This document shows positions 17,588 to 32,574 of a stretch of DNA of 64,000 nucleotides, piece by piece. The notes beneath the pieces are model-generated. The model did no database searches, was not told the DNA's origin, and was given only the letters and a program-made list of their open reading frames with translations. Source of the stretch: Escherichia coli (lineage in GTDB: Bacteria; Pseudomonadota; Gammaproteobacteria; Enterobacterales; Enterobacteriaceae); assembly GCF_044324785.1 (NCBI RefSeq), contig NZ_CP172127.1. One strand, given 5' to 3'. Within the stretch, counting starts at the first letter, position 1; every line of letters starts with the position of its first letter. The translations under genes and the position numbers were made by a program.

Positions 17588-18173
17588 CACTTTCTCCTTG
17601 TGCTTCGCGTTGATACAGCCGATAAGCCACCTGACCCGCCACTTTTTCCCGATGTAATGACCAGTTTGCCGGAACAGTGGGCAGACCGTTTTCGACTTCG
17701 CTTTCGACATAAATCAGGGCTTCGTCAGCCAGCCAGCCGTTATCTTCCAGTAAATTTATCGTCTCTTCTAACAAGCCACGGCGGAACGGTGGATCGACAA
17801 ACACGATATTATGCGGTGTGCCTTTTTGTGCCAGGAATGACATCGCGTTGCTGTTCACCACGCGCGCATTGCCTGCTTTTAGTGTCGCCAGATTCTTAAT
17901 TAACTGCTGAGAAACTGCACGATCCATCTCAATCAACGTGGCCCCCGCAGCGTAGCGCGATAACGCTTCCAGCCCCAGCGCGCCGCTCCCGGCGAAGCAA
18001 TCCAGACATTGGGCGTCAACAATGACCGGAGCCAGCCAGTTAAACAACGTTTCGCGTACGCGGTCGGTGGTGGGGCGCAGACCTGGACTATCAGGAACCG
18101 GGAGTTTACGGCCTCGCCACTGCCCGCCAATAATGCGGATTTGGCCGCTGCCGGAATGATTCGGTTTTTTCAT
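17577..18173 (-). CDS. rsmD: 16S rRNA m2G966 methyltransferase RsmD
   Basis: 198 aa with DxFxGxG SAM-binding motif (LDCFAGSGALG) and DPPF motif (VFVDPPF). Confidence 0.9.
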   Translation of the reverse strand: MKKPNHSGSGQIRIIGGQWRGRKLPVPDSPGLRPTTDRVRETLFNWLAPVIVDAQCLDCFAGSGALGLEALSRYAAGATLIEMDRAVSQQLIKNLATLKAGNARVVNSNAMSFLAQKGTPHNIVFVDPPFRRGLLEETINLLEDNGWLADEALIYVESEVENGLPTVPANWSLHREKVAGQVAYRLYQREAQGESDVD

Positions 18174-18322
18174 GATAAATTGCTCAATCCGCCAGATAAC
18201 ACATACTTGCAGGCGGTGATGTGAATTAAGTTAAGTGATAGACTATTTCATCATTTTTTTAGCTGCTATGTACATAGCGTTAACGCTGTGCCATGAAGCA
18301 ACAGCGAGGAGTGTAGTCGCAA

Positions 18323-19819
18323 ATGGCGAAAGAAAAAAAACGTGGCTTTTTTTCCTGGCTGGGCTTTGGTCAAAAAGAGCAGACCCCGGAAAAAGAGACA
18401 GAAGTTCAGAATGAACAACCGGTTGTAGAAGAAATCGTTCAGGCGCAAGAGCCTGCGAAGGCTTCTGAACAAGCCGTTGAAGAGCAGCCGCAGGCGCATA
18501 CTGAAGCCGAGGCGGAAACTTTTGCTGCCGAAGTTGTGGAAGTCACTGAACAGGTTGCTGAAAGTGAAAAAGCGCAGCCTGAAGCGGAAGTCGTTGCACA
18601 GCCGGAACCGGTCGTAGAAGAAACGCCGGAGCCAGTGGCTATCGAGCGTGAAGAGCTGCCGTTGCCGGAGGACGTCAACGCCGAAGAGGTTTCGCCAGAA
18701 GAGTGGCAGGCCGAAGCGGAAACCGTAGAGATTGTCGAAGCGGCGGAAGAAGAAGCGGCTAAAGAAGAAATCACCGACGAAGAGCTGGAAGCACAGGCGC
18801 TGGCTGCCGAAGCGGCAGAAGAAGCGGTGATAGTGGTTCCTCCGGCAGAAGAAGAGCAGCCGGTGGAAGAAATCGCTCAGGAGCAGGAAAAACCAACCAA
18901 AGAAGGTTTCTTCGCGCGCCTGAAACGCAGCCTGTTAAAAACCAAAGAAAATCTCGGTTCCGGATTTATCAGCCTGTTCCGCGGTAAAAAAATCGACGAT
19001 GATCTGTTTGAAGAGCTGGAAGAACAGCTGTTGATCGCCGATGTGGGCGTGGAAACCACACGTAAAATTATCACCAATCTGACGGAAGGCGCATCCCGCA
19101 AGCAGCTTCGTGATGCCGAGGCGCTTTATGGCCTGCTGAAAGAAGAGATGGGCGAGATTCTGGCGAAAGTCGATGAGCCGCTGAATGTTGAAGGTAAAAC
19201 GCCGTTCGTGATCCTGATGGTGGGCGTCAACGGTGTGGGTAAAACCACGACGATTGGTAAGCTGGCACGTCAGTTTGAGCAGCAGGGTAAATCGGTGATG
19301 CTGGCGGCGGGCGATACTTTCCGTGCAGCAGCGGTTGAACAGCTTCAGGTCTGGGGTCAGCGCAACAATATTCCGGTGATTGCCCAGCATACCGGTGCGG
19401 ATTCCGCCTCTGTTATCTTCGACGCCATTCAGGCAGCTAAAGCGCGTAATATCGACGTCTTGATTGCCGATACCGCCGGACGCCTGCAGAACAAATCGCA
19501 CCTGATGGAAGAGTTGAAGAAAATCGTCCGCGTGATGAAGAAACTCGACGTTGAAGCGCCGCATGAAGTTATGCTGACTATCGATGCCAGCACCGGGCAG
19601 AACGCGGTAAGCCAGGCCAAACTGTTCCACGAAGCCGTTGGCTTAACCGGCATCACGCTAACGAAACTGGACGGCACGGCGAAAGGCGGGGTAATTTTCT
19701 CGGTGGCTGACCAGTTTGGTATCCCTATCCGCTATATTGGTGTCGGCGAACGTATTGAGGATTTGCGTCCGTTTAAGGCGGACGACTTTATAGAGGCACT
19801 TTTTGCCCGAGAGGATTAA
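18323..19819 (+). CDS. ftsY: Signal-recognition-particle receptor FtsY
   Basis: Acidic low-complexity N-terminal domain followed by an SRP-GTPase domain (GVNGVGKTT, DTAGR, TKLD). Confidence 0.95.
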   Translation: MAKEKKRGFFSWLGFGQKEQTPEKETEVQNEQPVVEEIVQAQEPAKASEQAVEEQPQAHTEAEAETFAAEVVEVTEQVAESEKAQPEAEVVAQPEPVVEETPEPVAIEREELPLPEDVNAEEVSPEEWQAEAETVEIVEAAEEEAAKEEITDEELEAQALAAEAAEEAVIVVPPAEEEQPVEEIAQEQEKPTKEGFFARLKRSLLKTKENLGSGFISLFRGKKIDDDLFEELEEQLLIADVGVETTRKIITNLTEGASRKQLRDAEALYGLLKEEMGEILAKVDEPLNVEGKTPFVILMVGVNGVGKTTTIGKLARQFEQQGKSVMLAAGDTFRAAAVEQLQVWGQRNNIPVIAQHTGADSASVIFDAIQAAKARNIDVLIADTAGRLQNKSHLMEELKKIVRVMKKLDVEAPHEVMLTIDASTGQNAVSQAKLFHEAVGLTGITLTKLDGTAKGGVIFSVADQFGIPIRYIGVGERIEDLRPFKADDFIEALFARED

Positions 19820-19821
19820 CA

Positions 19822-20490
19822 ATGATTCGCTTTGAACATGTCAGCAAGGCTTATCTCGGTGGGAGACAGGCGCTGCAGGGCGTTACGTTCCATATGCAGC
19901 CGGGTGAGATGGCGTTTCTGACCGGTCATTCCGGCGCAGGGAAAAGTACCCTCCTGAAGCTGATCTGTGGGATTGAGCGGCCCAGCGCCGGGAAAATCTG
20001 GTTTAGCGGCCATGACATCACGCGTCTGAAAAACCGTGAAGTTCCGTTTCTGCGCCGCCAGATTGGCATGATTTTCCAGGATCACCATCTCCTGATGGAC
20101 CGTACTGTCTACGATAATGTGGCGATCCCGCTGATTATCGCCGGTGCCAGCGGTGACGATATTCGTCGCCGGGTGTCGGCGGCGCTGGATAAAGTCGGGC
20201 TACTGGACAAAGCGAAGAACTTTCCTATTCAGCTTTCCGGCGGTGAACAACAGCGTGTTGGCATTGCCCGCGCGGTGGTGAATAAGCCCGCGGTACTGCT
20301 GGCGGACGAACCGACTGGTAACCTGGACGACGCGTTGTCGGAAGGCATTTTACGTCTGTTTGAAGAGTTTAACCGCGTTGGGGTAACCGTATTGATGGCA
20401 ACGCACGACATCAACCTGATTTCACGGCGTTCCTATCGCATGCTCACCCTGAGCGATGGTCACTTGCATGGAGGCGTGGGCCATGAATAA
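19822..20490 (+). CDS. ftsE: Cell-division ABC ATPase FtsE
   Basis: 222 aa with Walker A (GHSGAGKST) and signature (LSGGEQQR). Confidence 0.95.
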
Positions 20491-21541
20491 GCGCGATGCA
20501 ATCAATCATATTCGGCAGTTTGGCGGGCGTCTTGATCGCTTCCGTAAATCGGTCGGCGGCTCAGGCGACGGCGGTCGTAACGCGCCGAAACGCGCGAAAT
20601 CCTCGCCAAAACCGGTAAATCGCAAAACCAACGTTTTCAACGAACAGGTGCGCTATGCCTTCCACGGCGCATTGCAGGATCTGAAAAGCAAACCGTTCGC
20701 CACGTTTTTAACGGTGATGGTTATCGCCATCTCCCTGACGCTGCCCAGCGTCTGTTATATGGTGTACAAAAACGTTAACCAGGCGGCGACGCAATATTAT
20801 CCGTCACCGCAAATCACTGTTTACTTGCAAAAAACGCTGGACGATGACGCCGCTGCGGGCGTGGTGGCACAGTTGCAGGCCGAGCAAGGCGTGGAGAAAG
20901 TGAACTATCTTTCTCGTGAAGACGCGCTGGGCGAGTTCCGTAACTGGTCTGGTTTTGGTGGTGCGCTGGATATGCTGGAAGAAAACCCACTTCCGGCAGT
21001 GGCGGTGGTGATCCCGAAGCTCGACTTTCAGGGGACGGAGTCTCTGAATACGCTGCGTGATCGTATCACGCAGATCAACGGCATTGACGAAGTGCGGATG
21101 GATGACAGCTGGTTTGCCCGTCTGGCGGCGTTGACCGGGCTGGTCGGGCGCGTTTCGGCGATGATCGGCGTGTTGATGGTGGCGGCAGTGTTTCTCGTCA
21201 TCGGTAACAGTGTACGCCTGAGCATCTTTGCTCGCCGTGACTCCATTAACGTACAAAAACTGATTGGTGCGACGGATGGTTTCATCCTGCGCCCGTTCCT
21301 GTACGGAGGCGCATTGCTGGGATTTTCTGGCGCATTGCTGTCATTAATTTTGTCAGAAATTCTGGTACTGCGTTTGTCATCGGCGGTTGCGGAAGTGGCA
21401 CAGGTTTTCGGAACAAAGTTTGATATCAATGGCTTATCGTTCGATGAATGCCTGCTGTTGCTGCTGGTATGCTCGATGATTGGCTGGGTGGCAGCGTGGC
21501 TTGCCACGGTACAACATTTACGCCACTTTACGCCTGAATAA
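20483..21541 (+). CDS. ftsX: Cell-division ABC permease-like protein FtsX
   Basis: Start at [15 protein letters not shown] gives 352 aa; ATGAATAA overlap with the ftsE stop. Confidence 0.92.
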
Positions 21542-21665
21542 TAAAAGCGTGTTATACTCTTTCCCTGCAATGGGTTCCGTAGCAGGGAAAGAGACCCCGT
21601 TGTCTCTTCCCGGTATTTCATCTCTATGTCACATTTTGTGCGTAATTTATTCACAAGCTTGCATT

Positions 21666-21692
21666 GAACTTGTGGATAAAATCACGGTCTGA
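21666..21692 (+). promoter_or_regulatory. rpoH sigma-E-dependent promoter (P3) with embedded DnaA box
   Basis: GAACTT-N16-TCTGA matches the sigma-E -35/-10 pattern; the spacer contains TGTGGATAA (21672..21680), the reverse complement of the DnaA box TTATCCACA. Confidence 0.7.
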
Positions 21693-21785
21693 TAAAACAG
21701 TGAATGATAATCTCGTTGCTCTTAAGCTCTGGCACAGTTGTTGCTACCACTGAAGCGCCAGAAGATATCGATTGAGAGGATTTGA

Positions 21786-22640
21786 ATGACTGACAAAATG
21801 CAAAGTTTAGCTTTAGCCCCAGTTGGCAACCTGGATTCCTACATCCGGGCAGCTAACGCGTGGCCGATGTTGTCGGCTGACGAGGAGCGGGCGCTGGCTG
21901 AAAAGCTGCATTACCATGGCGATCTGGAAGCAGCTAAAACGCTGATCCTGTCTCACCTGCGGTTTGTTGTTCATATTGCTCGTAATTATGCGGGCTATGG
22001 CCTGCCACAGGCGGATTTGATTCAGGAAGGTAACATCGGCCTGATGAAAGCAGTGCGCCGTTTCAACCCGGAAGTGGGTGTGCGCCTGGTCTCCTTCGCC
22101 GTCCACTGGATCAAAGCAGAGATCCACGAATACGTTCTGCGTAACTGGCGTATCGTCAAAGTTGCGACCACCAAAGCGCAGCGCAAACTGTTCTTCAACC
22201 TGCGTAAAACCAAGCAGCGTCTGGGCTGGTTTAACCAGGATGAAGTCGAAATGGTGGCCCGTGAACTGGGCGTAACCAGCAAAGACGTACGTGAGATGGA
22301 GTCGCGTATGGCGGCACAGGACATGACCTTTGACCTGTCTTCCGACGACGATTCCGACAGCCAGCCGATGGCTCCGGTGCTCTATCTGCAGGATAAATCA
22401 TCTAACTTTGCTGACGGCATTGAAGATGATAACTGGGAAGAGCAGGCGGCAAACCGTCTGACCGACGCGATGCAAGGTCTGGACGAGCGTAGCCAGGATA
22501 TCATCCGCGCGCGCTGGCTGGACGAAGACAACAAGTCCACGTTGCAGGAACTGGCTGACCGTTACGGTGTTTCCGCTGAGCGTGTGCGCCAGCTGGAAAA
22601 GAACGCGATGAAAAAACTTCGCGCTGCCATTGAAGCGTAA
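21786..22640 (+). CDS. rpoH: RNA polymerase sigma-32 heat-shock factor
   Basis: 284 aa beginning [68 protein letters not shown]. Confidence 0.97.
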
Positions 22641-22658
22641 TTTCCGCTACTAAGCAGA

Positions 22659-22692
22659 GAACCCTGGATGAGAATCCGGGGTTTTTGTTTTT
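22659..22692 (+). terminator. rpoH intrinsic terminator
   Basis: AACCCTGG / CCGGGGTT stem (one G-U pair) with an 8-nt loop, followed by TTTTTGTTTTTT. Confidence 0.7.
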
Positions 22693-22911
22693 TGGGCCTC
22701 TGCAATAATCAGTTTCCCCCTCCGGCAAAACGCCAATCCCCACGCAGATTGTTAATAAACTGTCAAAATAGCTATTCCAATATCATAAAAATCGGGTATG
22801 TTTTAGCAGAGTATGCTGCTAAAGCACGGGTAGTCATGCATAAAACGAAATAAAGTGCTGAACAACAACATCACAACACACGTAATAACCAGAAGAATGG
22901 GGAACCTCAGG

Positions 22912-24015
22912 ATGAACATGAAGGGTAAAGCGTTACTGGCAGGATGTATCGCGCTGGCATTCAGCAATATGGCTCTGGCAGAAGATATTAAAGTCGCGGT
23001 CGTGGGCGCAATGTCCGGTCCGGTGGCCCAGTACGGTGACCAGGAGTTTACTGGTGCTGAGCAGGCGGTTGCGGATATCAATGCTAAAGGTGGTATCAAA
23101 GGCAACAAACTGCAAATCGTGAAATATGACGATGCCTGTGACCCGAAACAGGCGGTTGCGGTGGCGAACAAAGTCGTTAACGACGGCATTAAATATGTGA
23201 TTGGTCACCTCTGTTCTTCATCAACGCAGCCAGCGTCAGACATCTATGAAGATGAAGGCATTTTAATGATCACCCCAGCGGCAACCGCGCCAGAGCTGAC
23301 CGCTCGTGGCTATCAGCTGATCCTGCGCACTACCGGCCTGGACTCCGACCAGGGACCGACGGCGGCGAAATATATTCTTGAGAAAGTGAAACCGCAGCGT
23401 ATTGCTATCGTTCACGACAAACAGCAGTACGGCGAAGGTCTGGCGCGTGCGGTGCAGGACGGCCTGAAGAAAGGCAATGCTAACGTGGTGTTCTTTGATG
23501 GCATCACCGCCGGGGAAAAAGATTTCTCTACGCTGGTGGCGCGTCTGAAAAAAGAGAATATCGACTTCGTTTACTACGGCGGTTATCACCCGGAAATGGG
23601 GCAAATCCTGCGTCAGGCACGCGCGGCAGGGTTGAAAACTCAGTTTATGGGGCCGGAAGGTGTGGCTAACGTTTCGCTGTCTAACATTGCGGGCGAATCA
23701 GCGGAAGGGCTGCTGGTGACCAAGCCGAAGAACTACGATCAGGTTCCGGCGAACAAACCCATTGTTGATGCGATCAAAGCGAAAAAACAGGACCCAAGCG
23801 GCGCATTCGTTTGGACCACCTACGCCGCGCTGCAATCTTTGCAGGCGGGCCTGAATCAGTCTGACGATCCGGCAGAAATCGCCAAATACCTGAAAGCGAA
23901 CTCCGTGGATACGGTGATGGGGCCGCTGACCTGGGATGAGAAAGGCGATCTGAAAGGCTTTGAGTTCGGCGTATTTGACTGGCACGCCAACGGCACGGCG
24001 ACCGATGCGAAGTAA
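22912..24015 (+). CDS. livJ: Periplasmic Leu/Ile/Val-binding protein LivJ
   Basis: Start at [23 protein letters not shown] (signal peptide) gives 367 aa; about 80 percent identical to the livK product in this window. Confidence 0.92.
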
Positions 24016-24074
24016 TCATTAATCGGCAACTTGGAGTTGCCGCCAAATTGCTAATATCGAGTACGTTGCTTCAT

Positions 24075-24173
24075 GCCGGATGCGGCGTATACGCCTTATC
24101 CGGCCTACAAGATCCAAAGAAATCAGTAAATTGCAGCACACATTGTAGGCCTGATAAGCGTAGCGCATCAGGC
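24075..24173. repeat. REP/BIME element (two inverted REP units)
   Basis: GCCGGATGCGGCGTATACGCCTTATCCGGCCTACA and the inverted TGTAGGCCTGATAAGCGTAGCGCATCAGGCA match the classic E. coli REP (PU) consensus. Confidence 0.8.
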
Positions 24174-24214
24174 AATTTCTCGTTGGTCGTCACTTTTGAA
24201 ATCAAACTTGACGA

Positions 24215-24598
24215 TTAACGCTTCTCCCAGCCGCCCTGTTGTGCCGTAAACCCCAGTGCCTGCATAAACGCTGTCATCACGCCGCGATCTTCCACGCCAG
24301 CATCCGCCATCCACCAATATGAAACGCCAGGATTGTTACGCAAAACCTCTTCCAGCAGATATTGCCCCACACCGCGACGGCGGGTGACTTCCCTCACACG
24401 CAGGGAATTCAGTGCCCCCTCGGTGCCGCTTAAGGTTACCCGCACGGCCGCGAGAAGGCGCTCGTTAAAACGCGCGGCGTAGATACGGTGGTTATCGTCA
24501 ACCTGTAAAGAGGAAGGGGAATACTCCGGCCAGATCTTTTGCAGGTCAATCCGGTCCTGGTCGCTAAAGTTTTCTAATCGAATGATGGTCAGCTTCAT
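24215..24598 (-). CDS. panM: PanD maturation factor PanM (PanZ), GNAT fold
   Basis: 127-aa ORF between livJ and livK in the yhhK position. Confidence 0.85.
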   Translation of the reverse strand: MKLTIIRLENFSDQDRIDLQKIWPEYSPSSLQVDDNHRIYAARFNERLLAAVRVTLSGTEGALNSLRVREVTRRRGVGQYLLEEVLRNNPGVSYWWMADAGVEDRGVMTAFMQALGFTAQQGGWEKR

Positions 24599-25021
24599 GG
24601 GTAACCCGTGTAAATCACAAAAGTGGAACCAGTGTAGCGAAATAATTTAATCGGAGGCTTTCTCTTTTTTAATTCTTTTGGCAGGTGATTAATTTTTTTT
24701 CAGCAATAATTACAAAGTTAAAACATTAGAGAATGAAAAATACCCAGCATAATCCCCTGAATGGTAGTGAATTATTCCGCCCTTTGTACCGTTATTTTAT
24801 GCTGACAACGGCGCTTTTTTCTGTTTATCTATCAATAAATTCAGAATATTATCTGTTCTTAATCGACTGAAAAATAGGGATTTTAATCGCTATCATCACA
24901 AAATACTGCGCTAAACCCTTAATCAGACAGGCAAAAACAGTGCAGTATAAAAAAAGAACAGTCTGATTTGTTAACACATAAGAACAAAGCAACACAACAT
25001 CACGAATGGGGATTTTTGACT

Positions 25022-26131
25022 ATGAAACGGAATGCGAAACCTATCATCGCAGGGATGATTGCACTGGCAATTTCACACACCGCTATGGCTGACGATATTA
25101 AAGTCGCCGTTGTCGGCGCGATGTCCGGCCCGATTGCCCAGTGGGGCGATATGGAATTTAACGGCGCGCGTCAGGCGATTAAAGACATTAATGCCAAAGG
25201 GGGAATTAAAGGCGATAAGCTGGTTGGCGTGGAATATGACGACGCCTGCGACCCGAAACAAGCCGTTGCGGTCGCCAACAAAATCGTTAACGACGGCATT
25301 AAATACGTTATTGGGCACTTGTGTTCCTCCTCTACCCAACCTGCATCAGATATCTACGAAGACGAAGGTATTCTGATGATCTCGCCGGGAGCGACCAACC
25401 CGGAGCTGACCCAACGCGGTTATCAATACATCATGCGTACTGCCGGGCTGGACTCTTCCCAGGGGCCAACGGCGGCAAAATACATTCTTGAGACGGTGAA
25501 GCCCCAGCGCATCGCCATCATTCACGACAAACAACAGTATGGCGAAGGGCTGGCACGTTCGGTGCAGGACGGGCTGAAAGCGGCTAACGCCAACGTTGTC
25601 TTCTTCGACGGTATTACCGCGGGTGAGAAAGATTTCTCCGCGCTGATCGCCCGCCTGAAAAAAGAAAATATCGACTTCGTTTACTACGGCGGTTACTACC
25701 CGGAAATGGGGCAGATGCTGCGCCAGGCCCGTTCTGTCGGCCTGAAAACCCAATTTATGGGGCCGGAAGGTGTGGGTAATGCGTCGCTGTCGAACATTGC
25801 TGGCGATGCTGCCGAAGGCATGTTGGTCACCATGCCAAAACGCTATGACCAGGACCCGGCAAACAAAGGCATCGTTGATGCGCTGAAAGCAGACAAGAAA
25901 GATCCATCCGGGCCATATGTCTGGATCACCTACGCGGCGGTGCAATCTCTGGCAACTGCCCTTGAGCGTACCGGCAGCGATGAGCCGCTGGCGCTGGTGA
26001 AAGATTTAAAAGCTAACGGTGCAAATACCGTGATTGGGCCGCTGAACTGGGATGAAAAAGGCGATCTTAAGGGATTTGATTTTGGTGTCTTCCAGTGGCA
26101 CGCCGACGGTTCATCCACGGCAGCCAAGTGA
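25022..26131 (+). CDS. livK: Periplasmic leucine-specific binding protein LivK
   Basis: Start at [23 protein letters not shown] gives 369 aa; first gene of livKHMGF. Confidence 0.92.
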
Positions 26132-26178
26132 TCATCCCACCGCCCGTGAAAAACGGGCGGGTTTAGAAAGGTTACCTT

Positions 26179-27105
26179 ATGTCTGAGCAGTTTTTGTATT
26201 TCTTGCAGCAGATGTTTAACGGCGTCACGCTGGGCAGTACCTACGCGCTGATAGCCATCGGCTACACCATGGTTTACGGCATTATCGGCATGATCAACTT
26301 CGCCCACGGTGAGGTTTATATGATCGGCAGCTACGTCTCCTTTATGATCATCGCTGCACTGATGATGCTGGGAATTGATACCGGCTGGCTGCTGGTGGCG
26401 GCGGGATTCGTTGGCGCAATCGTCATTGCCAGCGCCTACGGCTGGAGTATCGAACGGGTGGCTTACCGCCCGGTGCGTAACTCTAAGCGCCTGATTGCGC
26501 TTATTTCCGCAATCGGCATGTCCATCTTCCTGCAAAACTACGTCAGCCTGACCGAAGGTTCGCGCGACGTGGCGCTGCCGAGCCTGTTTAACGGTCAGTG
26601 GGTGGTGGGCCATAGCGAAAACTTCTCTGCCTCTATTACTACCATGCAGGCGGTGATCTGGATTGTCACCTTCCTCGCCATGCTGGCGCTGACGATTTTC
26701 ATTCGTTATTCCCGTATGGGGCGCGCCTGCCGTGCCTGCGCCGAAGATCTGAAAATGGCGAGCCTGCTTGGCATTAACACCGACCGGGTGATTGCGCTGA
26801 CCTTTGTGATTGGCGCGGCGATGGCGGCGGTGGCGGGTGTGCTGCTCGGTCAGTTCTACGGCGTCATTAACCCCTACATCGGCTTTATGGCCGGGATGAA
26901 AGCCTTTACCGCTGCGGTGCTCGGTGGGATTGGCAGCATTCCGGGAGCGATGATTGGCGGCCTGATTCTGGGGATTGCGGAGGCGCTCTCTTCTGCCTAT
27001 CTGAGTACGGAATATAAAGATGTGGTCTCATTCGCCCTGCTGATTCTGGTGTTGCTGGTGATGCCGACCGGTATTCTGGGTCGCCCGGAGGTAGAGAAAG
27101 TATGA
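26179..27105 (+). CDS. livH: Branched-chain amino-acid ABC permease LivH
   Basis: 308-aa permease; 4-bp overlap with livM. Confidence 0.93.
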
Positions 27106-28379
27106 AACCGATGCATATTGCAATGGCGCTGCTTTCTGCCGCGATGTTCTTTGTCCTCGCTGGCGTCTTTATGGGCGTGCAACTGGAGCTGGATGGCACC
27201 AAACTGGTGGTCGATAGCGCTTCGGATGTCCGTTGGCAGTGGGTGTTTATCGGCACGGCGGTGGTCTTTTTCTTCCAGCTTTTGCGACCGGCTTTCCAGA
27301 AAGGGTTGAAAAGCATTTCCGGACCGAAGTTTATTCTGCCCGCCATTGATGGCTCCACGGTGAAGCAAAAGCTGTTTCTCGTGGCGCTGCTGGTGCTTGC
27401 GGTGGCGTGGCCGTTTATGGTCTCACGCGGGACGGTGGATATCGCCACTCTGACCATGATCTACATTATTCTTGGTCTCGGGCTGAACGTGGTGGTAGGG
27501 CTTTCTGGTCTGCTGGTGCTCGGTTACGGCGGCTTTTACGCCATCGGCGCTTACACCTTTGCGCTGCTCAATCACTATTACGGTCTGGGGTTCTGGACCT
27601 GTCTGCCCATTGCCGGGTTAATGGCAGCGGCGGCGGGCTTCCTGCTCGGCTTCCCGGTGTTGCGTTTACGTGGCGACTATCTGGCGATCGTTACCCTCGG
27701 TTTCGGCGAAATTGTGCGCATATTGCTGCTCAATAACACTGAAATCACCGGCGGCCCGAACGGAATCAGTCAGATCCCGAAACCGACGCTCTTCGGACTC
27801 GAGTTCAGCCGTACCGCCCGTGAAGGCGGCTGGGACACGTTCAGTAATTTCTTTGGCCTGAAATACGATCCCTCCGATCGCGTCATCTTCCTCTACCTGG
27901 TGGCGTTGCTGCTGGTGGTGTTAAGCCTGTTTGTCATTAACCGCCTGCTGCGGATGCCGCTGGGGCGTGCGTGGGAAGCGTTGCGTGAAGACGAAATTGC
28001 CTGCCGTTCGCTGGGCTTAAGCCCGCGTCGTATCAAGCTGACTGCCTTTACCATCAGCGCCGCGTTTGCCGGTTTTGCCGGAACGCTGTTTGCTGCGCGT
28101 CAGGGCTTTGTCAGCCCGGAATCCTTCACCTTTGCCGAATCGGCGTTTGTGCTGGCGATAGTGGTGCTCGGCGGTATGGGCTCGCAATTTGCGGTAATTC
28201 TGGCGGCAATTTTGCTGGTGGTGTCGCGCGAATTGATGCGTGATTTCAACGAATACAGCATGTTAATGCTCGGTGGTTTGATGGTGCTGATGATGATCTG
28301 GCGTCCGCAGGGTTTGCTGCCCATGACGCGCCCGCAACTCAAGCTGAAGAACGGCGCAGCGAAAGGAGAGCAGGCATGA
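27102..28379 (+). CDS. livM: Branched-chain amino-acid ABC permease LivM
   Basis: 425-aa permease; 4-bp overlap with livG. Confidence 0.93.
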
Positions 28380-29143
28380 GTCAGCCATTATTATCTGTTA
28401 ACGGTCTGATGATGCGCTTCGGCGGCCTGCTGGCGGTGAACAACGTCAATCTTGAACTGTACCCGCAGGAGATCGTGTCGTTAATCGGCCCTAACGGTGC
28501 CGGAAAAACCACGGTCTTCAACTGCCTGACCGGATTCTATAAACCCACCGGCGGCACCATTTTACTGCGCGATCAGCATCTGGAAGGTTTGCCGGGGCAG
28601 CAAATTGCCCGCATGGGCGTGGTGCGAACCTTCCAGCATGTGCGTCTGTTCCGTGAAATGACGGTGATTGAAAACCTGCTGGTGGCGCAGCATCAGCAAC
28701 TGAAAACCGGGCTGTTCTCTGGCCTGTTGAAAACGCCTTCTTTCCGTCGCGCCCAGAGCGAAGCGCTCGACCGCGCCGCCACCTGGCTTGAGCGCATTGG
28801 TTTGCTGGAACACGCCAACCGTCAGGCGAGTAACCTGGCCTATGGTGACCAACGCCGTCTGGAGATTGCCCGTTGCATGGTGACGCAGCCGGAGATTTTA
28901 ATGCTCGACGAACCGGCGGCAGGTCTTAATCCGAAAGAGACGAAAGAGCTGGATGAGCTGATTGCCGAACTGCGTAACCATCACAACACCACTATCTTGT
29001 TGATTGAACATGATATGAAGCTGGTGATGGGGATTTCAGACAGAATCTACGTGGTCAATCAGGGGACGCCGCTGGCAAACGGTACGCCGGAGCAAATCCG
29101 TAATAACCCGGACGTGATCCGTGCCTATTTAGGTGAGGCATAA
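28376..29143 (+). CDS. livG: Branched-chain amino-acid ABC ATPase LivG
   Basis: 255 aa with Walker A (GPNGAGKTT). Confidence 0.93.
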
Positions 29144-29144
29144 G

Positions 29145-29858
29145 ATGGAAAAAGTCATGTTGTCCTTTAACAAAGTCAGCGCCCACTATGGCAAAATCCA
29201 GGCGCTGCATGAGGTGAGCCTGCATATCAATCAGGGCGAGATTGTCACCCTGATTGGCGCGAACGGCGCGGGGAAAACCACCTTACTCGGCACGCTATGC
29301 GGCGACCCGCGCGCCACCAGCGGGCGAATTGTGTTTGATGATAAAGACATTACCGACTGGCAGACGGCGAAAATCATGCGCGAAGCGGTGGCGATTGTCC
29401 CGGAAGGGCGTCGTGTTTTCTCGCGGATGACGGTGGAAGAGAACCTGGCGATGGGCGGTTTTTTTGCTGAACGTGACCAGTTCCAGGAACGCATAAAGTG
29501 GGTGTATGAACTGTTTCCGCGTCTCCATGAACGCCGTGTTCAGCGGGCGGGCACCATGTCCGGCGGTGAGCAGCAGATGCTGGCGATTGGTCGCGCGCTG
29601 ATGAGCAACCCGCGTTTATTGTTGCTTGATGAGCCATCGCTCGGTCTTGCGCCGATTATCATCCAGCAAATTTTCGACACCATCGAGCAGCTGCGCGAGC
29701 AGGGGATGACCATCTTCCTCGTCGAGCAGAACGCCAACCAGGCGCTAAAACTGGCGGATCGCGGCTACGTGCTGGAAAACGGTCATGTGGTGCTCTCCGA
29801 TACTGGCGATGCGCTGCTGGCAAATGAAGCGGTGAGAAGTGCGTATTTAGGCGGGTAA
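29145..29858 (+). CDS. livF: Branched-chain amino-acid ABC ATPase LivF
   Basis: Start at MEKVMLSF, 2 nt after the livG stop, gives 237 aa; Walker A GANGAGKTT. Confidence 0.92.
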   Translation: MEKVMLSFNKVSAHYGKIQALHEVSLHINQGEIVTLIGANGAGKTTLLGTLCGDPRATSGRIVFDDKDITDWQTAKIMREAVAIVPEGRRVFSRMTVEENLAMGGFFAERDQFQERIKWVYELFPRLHERRVQRAGTMSGGEQQMLAIGRALMSNPRLLLLDEPSLGLAPIIIQQIFDTIEQLREQGMTIFLVEQNANQALKLADRGYVLENGHVVLSDTGDALLANEAVRSAYLGG

Positions 29859-29867
29859 ATTATCGAT

Positions 29868-29906
29868 AACCCGGCAGCCACGTTCTGCCGGGTTATTCGT
29901 CCGTTT
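29868..29906 (+). terminator. livF intrinsic terminator
   Basis: AACCCGGCAG / CTGCCGGGTT 10-bp stem with a 7-nt loop, followed by a moderately T-rich tail. Confidence 0.6.
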
Positions 29907-29976
29907 ACAGACTTGTTTCGACTGACCGGGAGGATTAAAACCAGACCACTTATTTGCCACGGAAAGGTTCCCTCCC

Positions 29977-30723
29977 ATGCATTATGCCGTTGTCGTCATG
30001 CTTGAACTGCTTTGCTGTATTCACGCTTATCGCTCCGGACAAGAGCGATACTGGATTTTTATTATCTTCTGTTTTCCGGTGATTGGCTGCGTGGCGTATT
30101 TCGTCATGGTTATGCTGCCTGAAACGGGCGCTGACCGTCACGGGCGTACTTTGCTGATGCGCCTGCAGGACAAAATCAGCCCGGAACGCCACCTGCACAA
30201 ATTAACCGAAGAGCTGGCGATTGCCGAGACCAATCAAAACCATTATGCGTTAGCTAACGAACTGGCGCGCCTTGGGCGTTATCACGAAGCCGTTCCCCAT
30301 TATCAGCAGGCGTTAAGCGGAATTTTCGCCCATGAAGCGGTAATGATGTTAAGCCTGGCGCAGGCGCAATTTGCTATTCAGGAGTTCGCCGCCTGTCAGC
30401 AGACGCTGGAAGATGTGATGCGTTATAACCCCGATTTTCAGTCGGCAGACGGGCATTTGTTATTTGCCAGAGCGTTAGCCGCACAAGAAGAATACGCTGA
30501 TGCGGAAAGTGAGTTTGAAGTGTTGGTTTCTTATTACCCCGGCCCGCAGGCGCGTATTTACTATGCGGAAATGCTGGCGAAAATGAGTCGGTTACGTGAA
30601 GCCAACGAGCAGTATGTTGCTGTGGTTGATACGGCTAAACGCTCAAGAGCGCATTATAGAAAACACTACCGGGAATGGATTAAGACCGCCAATGAACGGT
30701 TGAAGCAGAGTGTGGTGCAATGA
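29977..30723 (+). CDS. Hypothetical membrane protein: N-terminal two-TM domain resembling the PLD/cardiolipin-synthase N-terminal domain, plus a C-terminal TPR-like helical domain
   Basis: 248-aa ORF with two hydrophobic helices and a W...FP.IG...Y pattern (WIFIIFCFPVIGCVAYFV), followed by alanine-rich repeats with TPR-like periodicity. I do not recall a gene between livF and ugpB in K-12. Confidence 0.6.
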   Translation: MHYAVVVMLELLCCIHAYRSGQERYWIFIIFCFPVIGCVAYFVMVMLPETGADRHGRTLLMRLQDKISPERHLHKLTEELAIAETNQNHYALANELARLGRYHEAVPHYQQALSGIFAHEAVMMLSLAQAQFAIQEFAACQQTLEDVMRYNPDFQSADGHLLFARALAAQEEYADAESEFEVLVSYYPGPQARIYYAEMLAKMSRLREANEQYVAVVDTAKRSRAHYRKHYREWIKTANERLKQSVVQ

Positions 30724-30793
30724 AAATCTTCTTTGCCGTTAGACAAGTGTCGCGGCAATCTTTTGTTAAAATTGAAAAATGTAGCTCTCATCG

Positions 30794-30837
30794 GGCAGCA
30801 AAACTGGACGCAGAATTTGCTGCCATTTTTGCTCTTC
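30794..30837 (+). terminator. Intrinsic terminator after the 248-aa ORF
   Basis: GGCAGCAAA / TTTGCTGCC 9-bp stem with a 13-nt loop, followed by ATTTTTGCTCTTC. Confidence 0.5.
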
Positions 30838-30946
30838 ATGGTAAGGAGTTCTGGCGATTAGCTGGCCGTTAATCGCCTCTTTTCAGTGCATTCTCGGGAT
30901 ATCCGTGCCCCATCTCCCATTTTCCCTCACCCGTACCGTCACCGCC

Positions 30947-30964
30947 TTGTCATCTTTCTGACAC
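30947..30964 (+). promoter_or_regulatory. Pho-box-like element in the ugpB promoter
   Basis: TTGTCAT-CTTT-CTGACAC resembles the PhoB direct-repeat box (CTGTCAT-N4-CTGTCAT), about 120 bp upstream of ugpB. ugp is a known Pho-regulon operon. Confidence 0.5.
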
Positions 30965-31082
30965 CTTACTATCTTACAAATGTAACAAAAAAGTTATTTT
31001 TCTGTAATTCGAGCATGTCATGTTACCCCGCGAGCATAAAACGCGTGAATTCGCGCATTCGGTACAACAAGAGAGATAAACG

Positions 31083-32399
31083 ATGAAACCGTTACATTAT
31101 ACAGCTTCAGCACTGGCGCTCGGACTGGCGTTAATGGGGAATGCACAGGCAGTGACGACCATTCCGTTCTGGCATTCTATGGAAGGGGAACTGGGTAAAG
31201 AGGTGGATTCTCTGGCCCAACGTTTTAACGCCGAAAACCCGGATTACAAAATTGTACCGACCTATAAAGGCAACTACGAACAGAATTTAAGCGCGGGGAT
31301 TGCCGCATTTCGTACCGGCAACGCGCCGGCTATTTTGCAGGTTTATGAAGTTGGCACCGCCACCATGATGGCGTCTAAGGCCATTAAACCGGTATATGAC
31401 GTGTTTAAAGAGGCGGGGATTCAATTCGATGAGTCGCAGTTTGTGCCGACGGTTTCAGGTTACTACTCCGACAGCAAAACCGGCCACTTACTCTCCCAGC
31501 CGTTCAACAGCTCGACTCCCGTTCTCTATTACAACAAAGACGCCTTCAAGAAAGCTGGGCTAGACCCGGAACAGCCGCCGAAAACCTGGCAGGATCTGGC
31601 GGACTATGCCGCAAAACTGAAAGCCTCCGGCATGAAGTGCGGCTACGCCAGCGGCTGGCAGGGCTGGATCCAACTGGAAAACTTTAGCGCCTGGAACGGT
31701 CTGCCGTTTGCCAGCAAAAACAACGGCTTTGACGGCACGGACGCGGTGCTGGAGTTCAACAAGCCGGAGCAGGTGAAACACATCGCCATGCTCGAAGAGA
31801 TGAACAAGAAGGGCGACTTCAGCTACGTCGGTCGTAAGGATGAATCCACCGAGAAGTTCTATAACGGTGATTGCGCGATGACCACCGCCTCTTCCGGTTC
31901 GCTTGCCAACATTCGCGAGTACGCCAAATTTAACTATGGCGTAGGCATGATGCCTTACGACGCCGATGCGAAAGATGCGCCACAAAACGCCATTATCGGC
32001 GGAGCCAGCCTGTGGGTGATGCAGGGTAAAGATAAAGAAACGTATACCGGTGTGGCGAAGTTCCTCGACTTCCTCGCGAAGCCAGAAAACGCTGCCGAGT
32101 GGCATCAGAAAACTGGTTATCTGCCAATCACCAAAGCGGCGTATGACCTGACCCGTGAGCAGGGTTTTTATGAGAAAAACCCAGGGGCGGATACCGCGAC
32201 GCGTCAGATGCTGAATAAGCCGCCGTTACCGTTCACCAAAGGGCTGCGTCTGGGCAACATGCCGCAGATCCGCGTGATTGTGGATGAAGAGCTGGAGAGC
32301 GTGTGGACCGGTAAGAAGACACCACAGCAGGCACTGGATACCGCCGTTGAGCGTGGGAACCAGTTACTGCGCCGCTTTGAGAAATCGACGAAGTCTTAA
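31083..32399 (+). CDS. ugpB: Periplasmic sn-glycerol-3-phosphate-binding protein UgpB
   Basis: 438 aa with signal peptide ([23 protein letters not shown]). Confidence 0.95.
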
Positions 32400-32404
32400 T
32401 TCTC

Positions 32405-32551
32405 TTACCCTCACCCTAACCCTCTCCCAAAGGGAGAGGGGACCGATCGGCGTGGTATCCAGGTGCCGTGTCGGTTTGCAACTTCGCTCGGTGGGAAAGT
32501 ATGCACCGCCTTTCTCCCTCGCCCCTCTGGGGAGAGGGCCGGGGTGAGGGG
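32405..32551. repeat. Long GC-rich palindromic intergenic repeat between ugpB and ugpA
   Basis: Arm CCCTCACCCTAACCCTCTCCC (32408..32428) pairs with inverted GGGAGAGGGCCGGGGTGAGGG near 32530..32550; each arm also holds a local hairpin (CCCTCTCCC-AAA-GGGAGAGGG). A partial copy lies at 13845..13883. Confidence 0.55.
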
Positions 32552-32574
32552 AACACAACACGAAGAGTTTAACT

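Follow-up and report, generated by a model that had tools for sequence, protein, structure and literature searches.

At the locus between livF and ugpB, Escherichia coli genomes differ in a way that raises a simple question. In a K-12-like genome the two genes are separated by a spacer of 398 bp without an annotated gene, versus 1,224 bp in the window (the whole stretch of 64,000 nucleotides of E. coli DNA that was analysed), where an ORF of 248 codons is located. Is this ORF a functional gene, how did it come to differ between strains, and what may its product do? A preliminary description of the window had proposed an additional gene that is absent from K-12, and the alignment of the two spacers bears this out. 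We read the ORF, with a probability of about 0.6, as an ancestral and intact accessory gene for a small inner-membrane scaffold composed of tetratricopeptide repeats (TPR).

The gene is ordinary in kind and not surprising. Nothing known about liv or ugp is altered by it, no long-standing question is opened, and the practical value is small. It provides, however, a clean presence/absence polymorphism with three alleles at a well-studied E. coli locus, at which K-12 carries the derived, gene-less state, and it represents a widely conserved, uncharacterized membrane-TPR family for which O157:H7 and K-12 form a natural plus/minus pair for functional studies. The RefSeq annotation, the occurrence in about 12% of the complete E. 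coli genomes including O157:H7, and an ancestral rather than inserted origin are additions to the preliminary description.

The gene and its distribution in E. coli

The ORF starts with the first ATG downstream of an in-frame stop codon (Table 1), and RefSeq places the start at the same codon. The annotation reads 'tetratricopeptide repeat protein', occasionally 'hypothetical protein', and for E. coli a protein identical to that of the window is recorded on 262 contigs. A megablast search with the segment located the gene in 659 of the 5,426 complete E. coli genomes (~12%), always as a single chromosomal copy; plasmid copies were not found in these genomes. Sampled O157:H7, O55:H7 and O145 strains are among the carriers, and the remaining ~88%, K-12 included, are without the gene. 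The ORF is thus a real, intact accessory gene on the chromosome that has already been annotated and catalogued. Its function is uncharacterized, as the preliminary description had stated: literature searches by locus tags, PLDc_N and the combination livF/ugpB/TPR retrieved nothing on this gene. Since ECs4299 is ugpB in the literature on O157:H7 Sakai, the TPR gene is presumably ECs4300 in that strain.

The lineage of the window is poorly represented among complete E. coli genomes, since the best match to an 11.9-kb core stretch (positions 18000-29858, ftsYEX-rpoH-liv) among the 5,426 genomes reached just 98.4%.

Table 1 Features of the livF-ugpB region, with positions in the window
Feature	Position	Strand	Description
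livG	28376..29143		
livF	29145-29858		Upstream neighbour of the ORF
Variable segment	29859..30900		1,042 bp; left edge at the livF stop codon, right edge at 30900/30901
Hairpin directly past the livF stop codon	29866..29896	+	12-bp perfect stem, 7-nt loop, weak T-run; inside the variable segment
Conserved upstream block	29907..29941	+	ACAGACTTGTTTC (29907-29919), GGAGGATTAAA (29929-29939)
Shine-Dalgarno-like GGAAAGG	29961..29967	+	9 nt 5' of the ATG
TPR protein CDS	29977..30723	+	248 aa; RefSeq 'tetratricopeptide repeat protein'
Predicted membrane hairpin, two helices	29977..30120	+	Codons 1-48; model helices 2-20 and 25-52; PLDc_N motif W26-x7-P34-x2-G37-x3-Y41, conserved H16 and P48
Four predicted TPR helix pairs	30232..30642	+	Codons 86-222 (86-112, 121-150, 157-186, 191-222)
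Hairpin 1 past the stop codon	30734..30768	+	GCCG..CGGC stem (30734-30757), then AATCTTTTGTT; from RNA folding
Hairpin 2	30794..30831	+	GGCAGCAAA/TTTGCTGCC, 9-bp perfect stem (30794-30824), then ATTTTTG
Hairpin 3	30853..30885	+	GGCGATTAGC/GTTAATCGCC, 10 pairs (30853-30877), then TCTTTTC; terminator-like
ugpB	31083..32399		Same strand as the ORF; begins 360 bp downstream of it

Architecture and family of the predicted protein

For the product, a pair of N-terminal membrane helices resembling PLDc_N, with TPR repeats after them, had been proposed, and both Pfam and an AlphaFold model agree with this proposal. The Pfam family PLDc_N matched residues 26-43 (E 1.1e-4, 22.5 bits), a borderline and partial match that covers model positions 22-39 of 42 and leaves helix 1 outside. 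The affiliation of the C-terminal part with TPR proteins is indicated by matches to TPR_19 (E 7.9e-6) and to TPR_1 and TPR_2 (~1.3e-4 to 1.4e-4), by four modelled helix pairs, and by Foldseek hits to MamA and consensus TPR. The AlphaFold (AF2) model is all-helical with a mean pLDDT of 88 and a pTM of 0.70. In this model, a lower-confidence linker follows the membrane hairpin, helices 54-82 precede the TPR pairs and capping helices (225-247) close the structure. The model hence predicts a small inner-membrane protein in which a PLDc_N-type hairpin tethers a helical domain of ~180 residues with about four TPR repeats.

Neither by fold nor by sequence profile did searches of the PDB go beyond generic TPR proteins, which in the fold search were MamA, consensus TPR and YrrB. 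The top-scoring structures for the C-terminal domain had TM scores of ~0.55 (query) and 0.75-0.79 (target) and correspond to generic arrays of 4-5 repeats. At 15-20% identity they are an indication of the fold only; in contrast to the protein studied here, these proteins are soluble and lack a membrane hairpin.

The family is large. An exhaustive HMMER search recovered 793 clusters at E <= 1e-10 from Gamma-, Alpha- and Betaproteobacteria, nearly all with a length of 240-260 aa and an end-to-end alignment; among Enterobacteriaceae, members were recovered only from Escherichia, Citrobacter and Pseudocitrobacter. TPR_19 was matched by 23 of 25 family members, and PLDc_N by seven of them at E <= 1e-3 and by 13 at E <= 0.1. 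A fold search of the AlphaFold database (AFDB) revealed full-length look-alikes in Citrobacter, Xenorhabdus, Pseudomonas, Xanthomonas, Lysobacter, Gilliamella, Maricaulis and others, which carry names such as 'TPR protein', 'membrane protein' and, for several of them in UniProt, 'Cardiolipin synthase N-terminal domain-containing protein'. In an alignment with 146 relatives, the highest conservation was located in the hairpin, with H16, W26, P34, G37, Y41 and P48 retained in 91-99%. The TPR part retains mainly structural alanines and the motif (S)xxGHLLYAR. This concentration of conservation in the membrane hairpin, and not on the TPR surface, suggests that the hairpin is more than a passive anchor.

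The gene neighbourhood was analysed in eight annotated contexts and by an all-against-all clustering of the ORFs from 85 loci. Neighbours were shared within genera only, and none was conserved across the 85 loci. The gene lies between livF and ugpB in Escherichia and Citrobacter, between accA and tilS in Xanthomonadales (accA-X-tilS), with LOG-like and MscS genes in Pseudomonas, and with mnmE and a gene of the metallo-beta-lactamase fold on a metagenomic contig. One apparent neighbour 'cluster' of 54 loci was discarded as an antisense shadow ORF of the TPR gene itself. Among the anti-phage defence models of PADLOC-DB, no family was matched at E <= 1.

Proposed role and membrane topology

With neither conserved neighbours nor a match to a defence model, the best-supported reading rests on the architecture. 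The protein would most likely act as a membrane-bound scaffold or adaptor for protein-protein interactions, recruiting a partner to the cytoplasmic membrane or holding it there. By analogy with the hairpin of cardiolipin synthases, the TPR domain would probably face the cytoplasm, an orientation that we consider nearly twice as probable as a periplasmic one.

The opposite topology, with helix 2 as the signal anchor and with a periplasmic TPR domain whose envelope role would resemble that of YfgM or CpoB, is unlikely and nevertheless the strongest competitor. The charge distribution speaks in both directions. With an average of 2.15 K+R in the inter-helix loop and none at the N-terminus, an arrangement with the loop inside and both ends outside is allowed; the 20 residues after helix 2, however, carry more positive charge, with 3.99 K+R on average. 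The best NCBIfam match is the periplasmic TPR protein YbgF/CpoB (TIGR02795), although its score of 29.4 bits is far below the cut-off of 90.1. CpoB itself differs in combining a coiled-coil N-domain with a cleaved signal peptide. A second envelope TPR protein, HemY, gave another weak profile match to the TPR part (17.5 bits versus a cut-off of 142) and differs by its HemY_N domain. In cardiolipin synthases, the catalytic domain that follows the hairpin is generally placed in the cytoplasm, and the homology of the two hairpins argues against a periplasmic TPR domain.

Beyond the cytoplasmic scaffold that we favour, the conserved hairpin invites a speculative extension, to which we give little weight. 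Proteins of the PLDc_N-TPR type might be an unrecognized, widespread class of inner-membrane adaptors, whose hairpin (H16, W26, G37, Y41) would sense or bind a membrane lipid, e.g. an anionic phospholipid, and whose TPR arm would recruit a cytoplasmic client. If this holds, the presence or absence of the gene in O157:H7 and K-12 should lead to a measurable envelope or stress phenotype.

Selection on the gene

Six E. coli alleles were compared, which are separated by a dS of 0.06-0.34. All six are intact, and their pairwise dN/dS ranges between 0.08 and 0.17. The corresponding value for livF and ugpB is ~0.01. The TPR gene is hence under clear purifying selection, about ten times weaker than that on its flanking genes. 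K-12 has no copy of the gene at this position, and a coding signal well above chance as well as conservation in related genomes, which the preliminary description had left to be checked, are evident from these dN/dS values and the 793 family clusters.

The relaxed selection could also be read as that on a decaying ORF without function, en route to loss in E. coli. Such a reading accommodates the absence of the gene from 88% of the complete genomes and the existence of truncated versions (P0013 and P0014). It also accommodates a frameshift at codon 185/186 in the type strain of E. albertii, NBRC 107761 (L020:6001-6743), which marks this copy as a probable pseudogene. We regard decay as doubtful, however, because the dN/dS is well below 1 among uniformly intact alleles, and because length and motifs have been held across hundreds of divergent family clusters. 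What the loss from most E. coli and the frameshift in E. albertii do indicate is a function that is easily dispensable.

Signals flanking the gene and the ugp regulatory region

The variable segment begins with a hairpin directly past the livF stop codon, a candidate for an allele-specific livF terminator; it is absent from the K-12 allele, where a different hairpin follows livF. Further downstream, ACAGACTTGTTTC and GGAGGATTAAA are invariant in E. coli, cryptic Escherichia, E. whittamii, E. albertii and C. freundii, and their surroundings diverge. This block includes a putative weak sigma-70 promoter composed of TTGTTT (29913-29918), a 17-nt spacer and TAAAAC (29936-29941), a combination that a consensus promoter scan did not list. 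Readings of the block as a sigma-E, sigma-32 or sigma-54 promoter were set aside as poor fits by eye. Transcription would probably start from the weak conserved promoter ~40-65 bp upstream of the gene, possibly supplemented by read-through from the liv operon. A Shine-Dalgarno sequence of the gene's own had been proposed as well; we located it as GGAAAGG, and its equivalent is retained in Citrobacter.

Downstream of the gene, both hairpins of the preliminary description were recovered, together with a third one closer to the stop codon (hairpin 1 in Table 1). The 180-nt tail past the stop codon folds more stably than shuffled sequences (z = -2.46), and the terminator scan, which is not statistically strong by itself, found four candidates versus 1.8 +/- 1.2 expected. 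An Rfam search of positions 29700-31200 at E <= 1 matched no family, and the hairpin-rich tail thus does not correspond to any known RNA. The three hairpins with their T-runs would act as terminators that insulate the TPR gene from the ugp promoter.

It had been suggested that the gene may affect the regulation of ugp, and this suggestion fares poorly. The 182 bp from position 30901 to ugpB are nearly identical across all three E. coli alleles of the locus. They contain CTGTCAT-like repeats with an 11-bp period, which we take to be Pho boxes. The location of this array inside the shared segment, downstream of the allele boundary at 30900/30901, makes an effect of the gene on ugp regulation unlikely. 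A role of the gene in modifying ugp (Pho regulon) expression, in cis or in trans, would fit its position, 360 bp ahead of ugpB in the same orientation, and the short distance of ~35 bp between the allele boundary and the first Pho-box-like repeat. We nevertheless rate it as improbable, given the shared regulatory DNA, the three intervening terminator-like hairpins and the occurrence of relatives in unrelated contexts, e.g. accA-X-tilS in Xanthomonadales. Matches to the CRP-site pattern were at chance level (20 versus 20.7 expected).

The spacer between ugpB and ugpA (32400-32560) is also variable. In the window it contains a GC-rich element of ~160 bp between two imperfect palindromes (ccctctcccaaagggagagg... 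and ...cccctctggggagagggccggggtgagggg), which presumably resembles the boxC-type dispersed repeats. The element lengthens this spacer relative to K-12-like genomes (97 bp); one carrier of the TPR gene has a spacer of 181 bp.

Alleles and ancestry of the locus

In a three-way alignment, the collinearity of the window and the K-12 type extends to the livF stop codon and resumes at position 30901. In between, the K-12 type has ~215 unrelated bp in place of the 1,042 bp of the window, and the right junction is identical in all three E. coli alleles. The K-12-type spacer contains the inverted pair CTTATCAGGCCTAC/GTAGGCCTGATAAG. Counted per E. coli genome, its 121-bp core has a median of 10 sites, and the spacer thus carries a dispersed repeat, presumably of the REP/BIME kind. 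All sampled genomes without the gene gave an identical two-piece match with a span of 763-775 bp, which indicates a single replacement allele that has since spread.

Carriers fall into two alleles. In allele A (the window and O157) the stop codon is followed by a tail of 177 bp, in allele B (WL297 and R32_14_1F) by just ~50 bp. The C-terminal end reads ...SVVQ in the window (30701-30723), O157 and E. whittamii, versus ...SIVR in WL297, R32, E. fergusonii and Citrobacter proteins, with ...STVR in the TPR protein of C. freundii. The 3' end of allele B may be the older one, and the hairpin-rich tail of 177 bp may be a later gain of allele A.

To examine synteny, the fetched loci were searched by tblastn with the ORF and with livG, livF and ugpB as queries. 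The order livF-ORF-ugpB was found in seven taxa: Escherichia sp. E1V33, Escherichia sp. MOD1-EC7003, E. whittamii, E. albertii, Citrobacter sp. NCU1, a Pseudocitrobacter MAG and C. freundii. An identical slot across Escherichia and Citrobacter points to an ancestral gene. Judged from this gene order, the gene is ancestral to both genera and the gene-less state of K-12 is derived. Strains of the K-12 type have exchanged the segment of 1,042 bp for a spacer of 215 bp with a dispersed repeat, with the gene being dispensable.

The patchy occurrence in 12% of E. coli and in few genera of Enterobacteriaceae (Escherichia, Citrobacter and Pseudocitrobacter) is also what one would expect of an islet that was horizontally acquired and inserted between livF and ugpB in the lineage of the window. 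Yet the slot is identical in the seven taxa, the GC content (0.50-0.52) is typical of the region, integrases, IS elements and direct repeats were not found around the ORF, and the gene is never plasmid-borne. The dispersed repeat, a mobile-type element, sits in the gene-less allele instead. Insertion by horizontal transfer was therefore rejected on synteny, as largely refuted, and has a slightly lower standing than an influence on ugp.

The same interval is variable beyond E. coli. livF and the TPR gene are ~530 bp apart in E. whittamii and E. albertii versus 118 bp in the window, and in E. whittamii (L019:5597-5887) this spacer contains a hydrophobic ORF of 96 aa (MDFLTVVLKLFCC...). In C. freundii (L003:6850-8324), four additional genes lie downstream of the TPR gene in the livF-ugpB slot. 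Two encode hypothetical proteins of 93 and 135 aa, and the other two form a toxin-antitoxin pair of the Phd/YefM-Fic (Doc-like) type. The livF-ugpB spacer gives the impression of a hot spot at which small accessory genes accumulate.

The flanking genes have a high dS among E. coli strains (livF 0.13-0.34, ugpB 0.06-0.22), with values of 0.16 for livF and 0.11 for ugpB between O157 and K-12. These values are above those typical of E. coli core genes and could stem from old haplotypes that recombine around the presence/absence polymorphism.

Comparison with cardiolipin synthases and LapB

PLDc_N (PF13396) is the two-helix N-terminal hairpin of cardiolipin synthases (ClsA) and also occurs in small stand-alone proteins. 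Like the TPR protein, these proteins have the motif W-x7-P-x2-G-x3-Y in helix 2. In the TPR protein, in contrast to ClsA, the hairpin is followed by a TPR solenoid and not by PLD/HKD catalytic domains. The ClsA profile TIGR04265 matched with 12.5 bits versus a cut-off of 290 and aligned residues 22-82 only, with profile positions 31-91. The match being confined to this region and below the cut-off, it is the anchor module that is shared and not the enzyme. A phospholipid enzyme related to cardiolipin synthase, which the common N-terminal hairpin might bring to mind, is refuted at the sequence level by this score, by the Pfam result without a PLD domain and by the TPR nature of the remainder.

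For the scaffold that we prefer, LapB (YciM), a cytoplasmic TPR adaptor at the inner membrane of E. coli, offers a parallel in design, as it combines an N-terminal anchor with a TPR array at a similar size. A single transmembrane helix and, at the C-terminus, a rubredoxin-type zinc finger characterize LapB, whereas the TPR protein has two predicted helices and no zinc finger. C-terminal CxxC pairs were absent, and no LapB family was matched in NCBIfam at E <= 1. The likeness is thus an analogy for how the protein may work, and does not imply membership in the LapB family. One AFDB relative is automatically named 'Lipopolysaccharide assembly protein B'.
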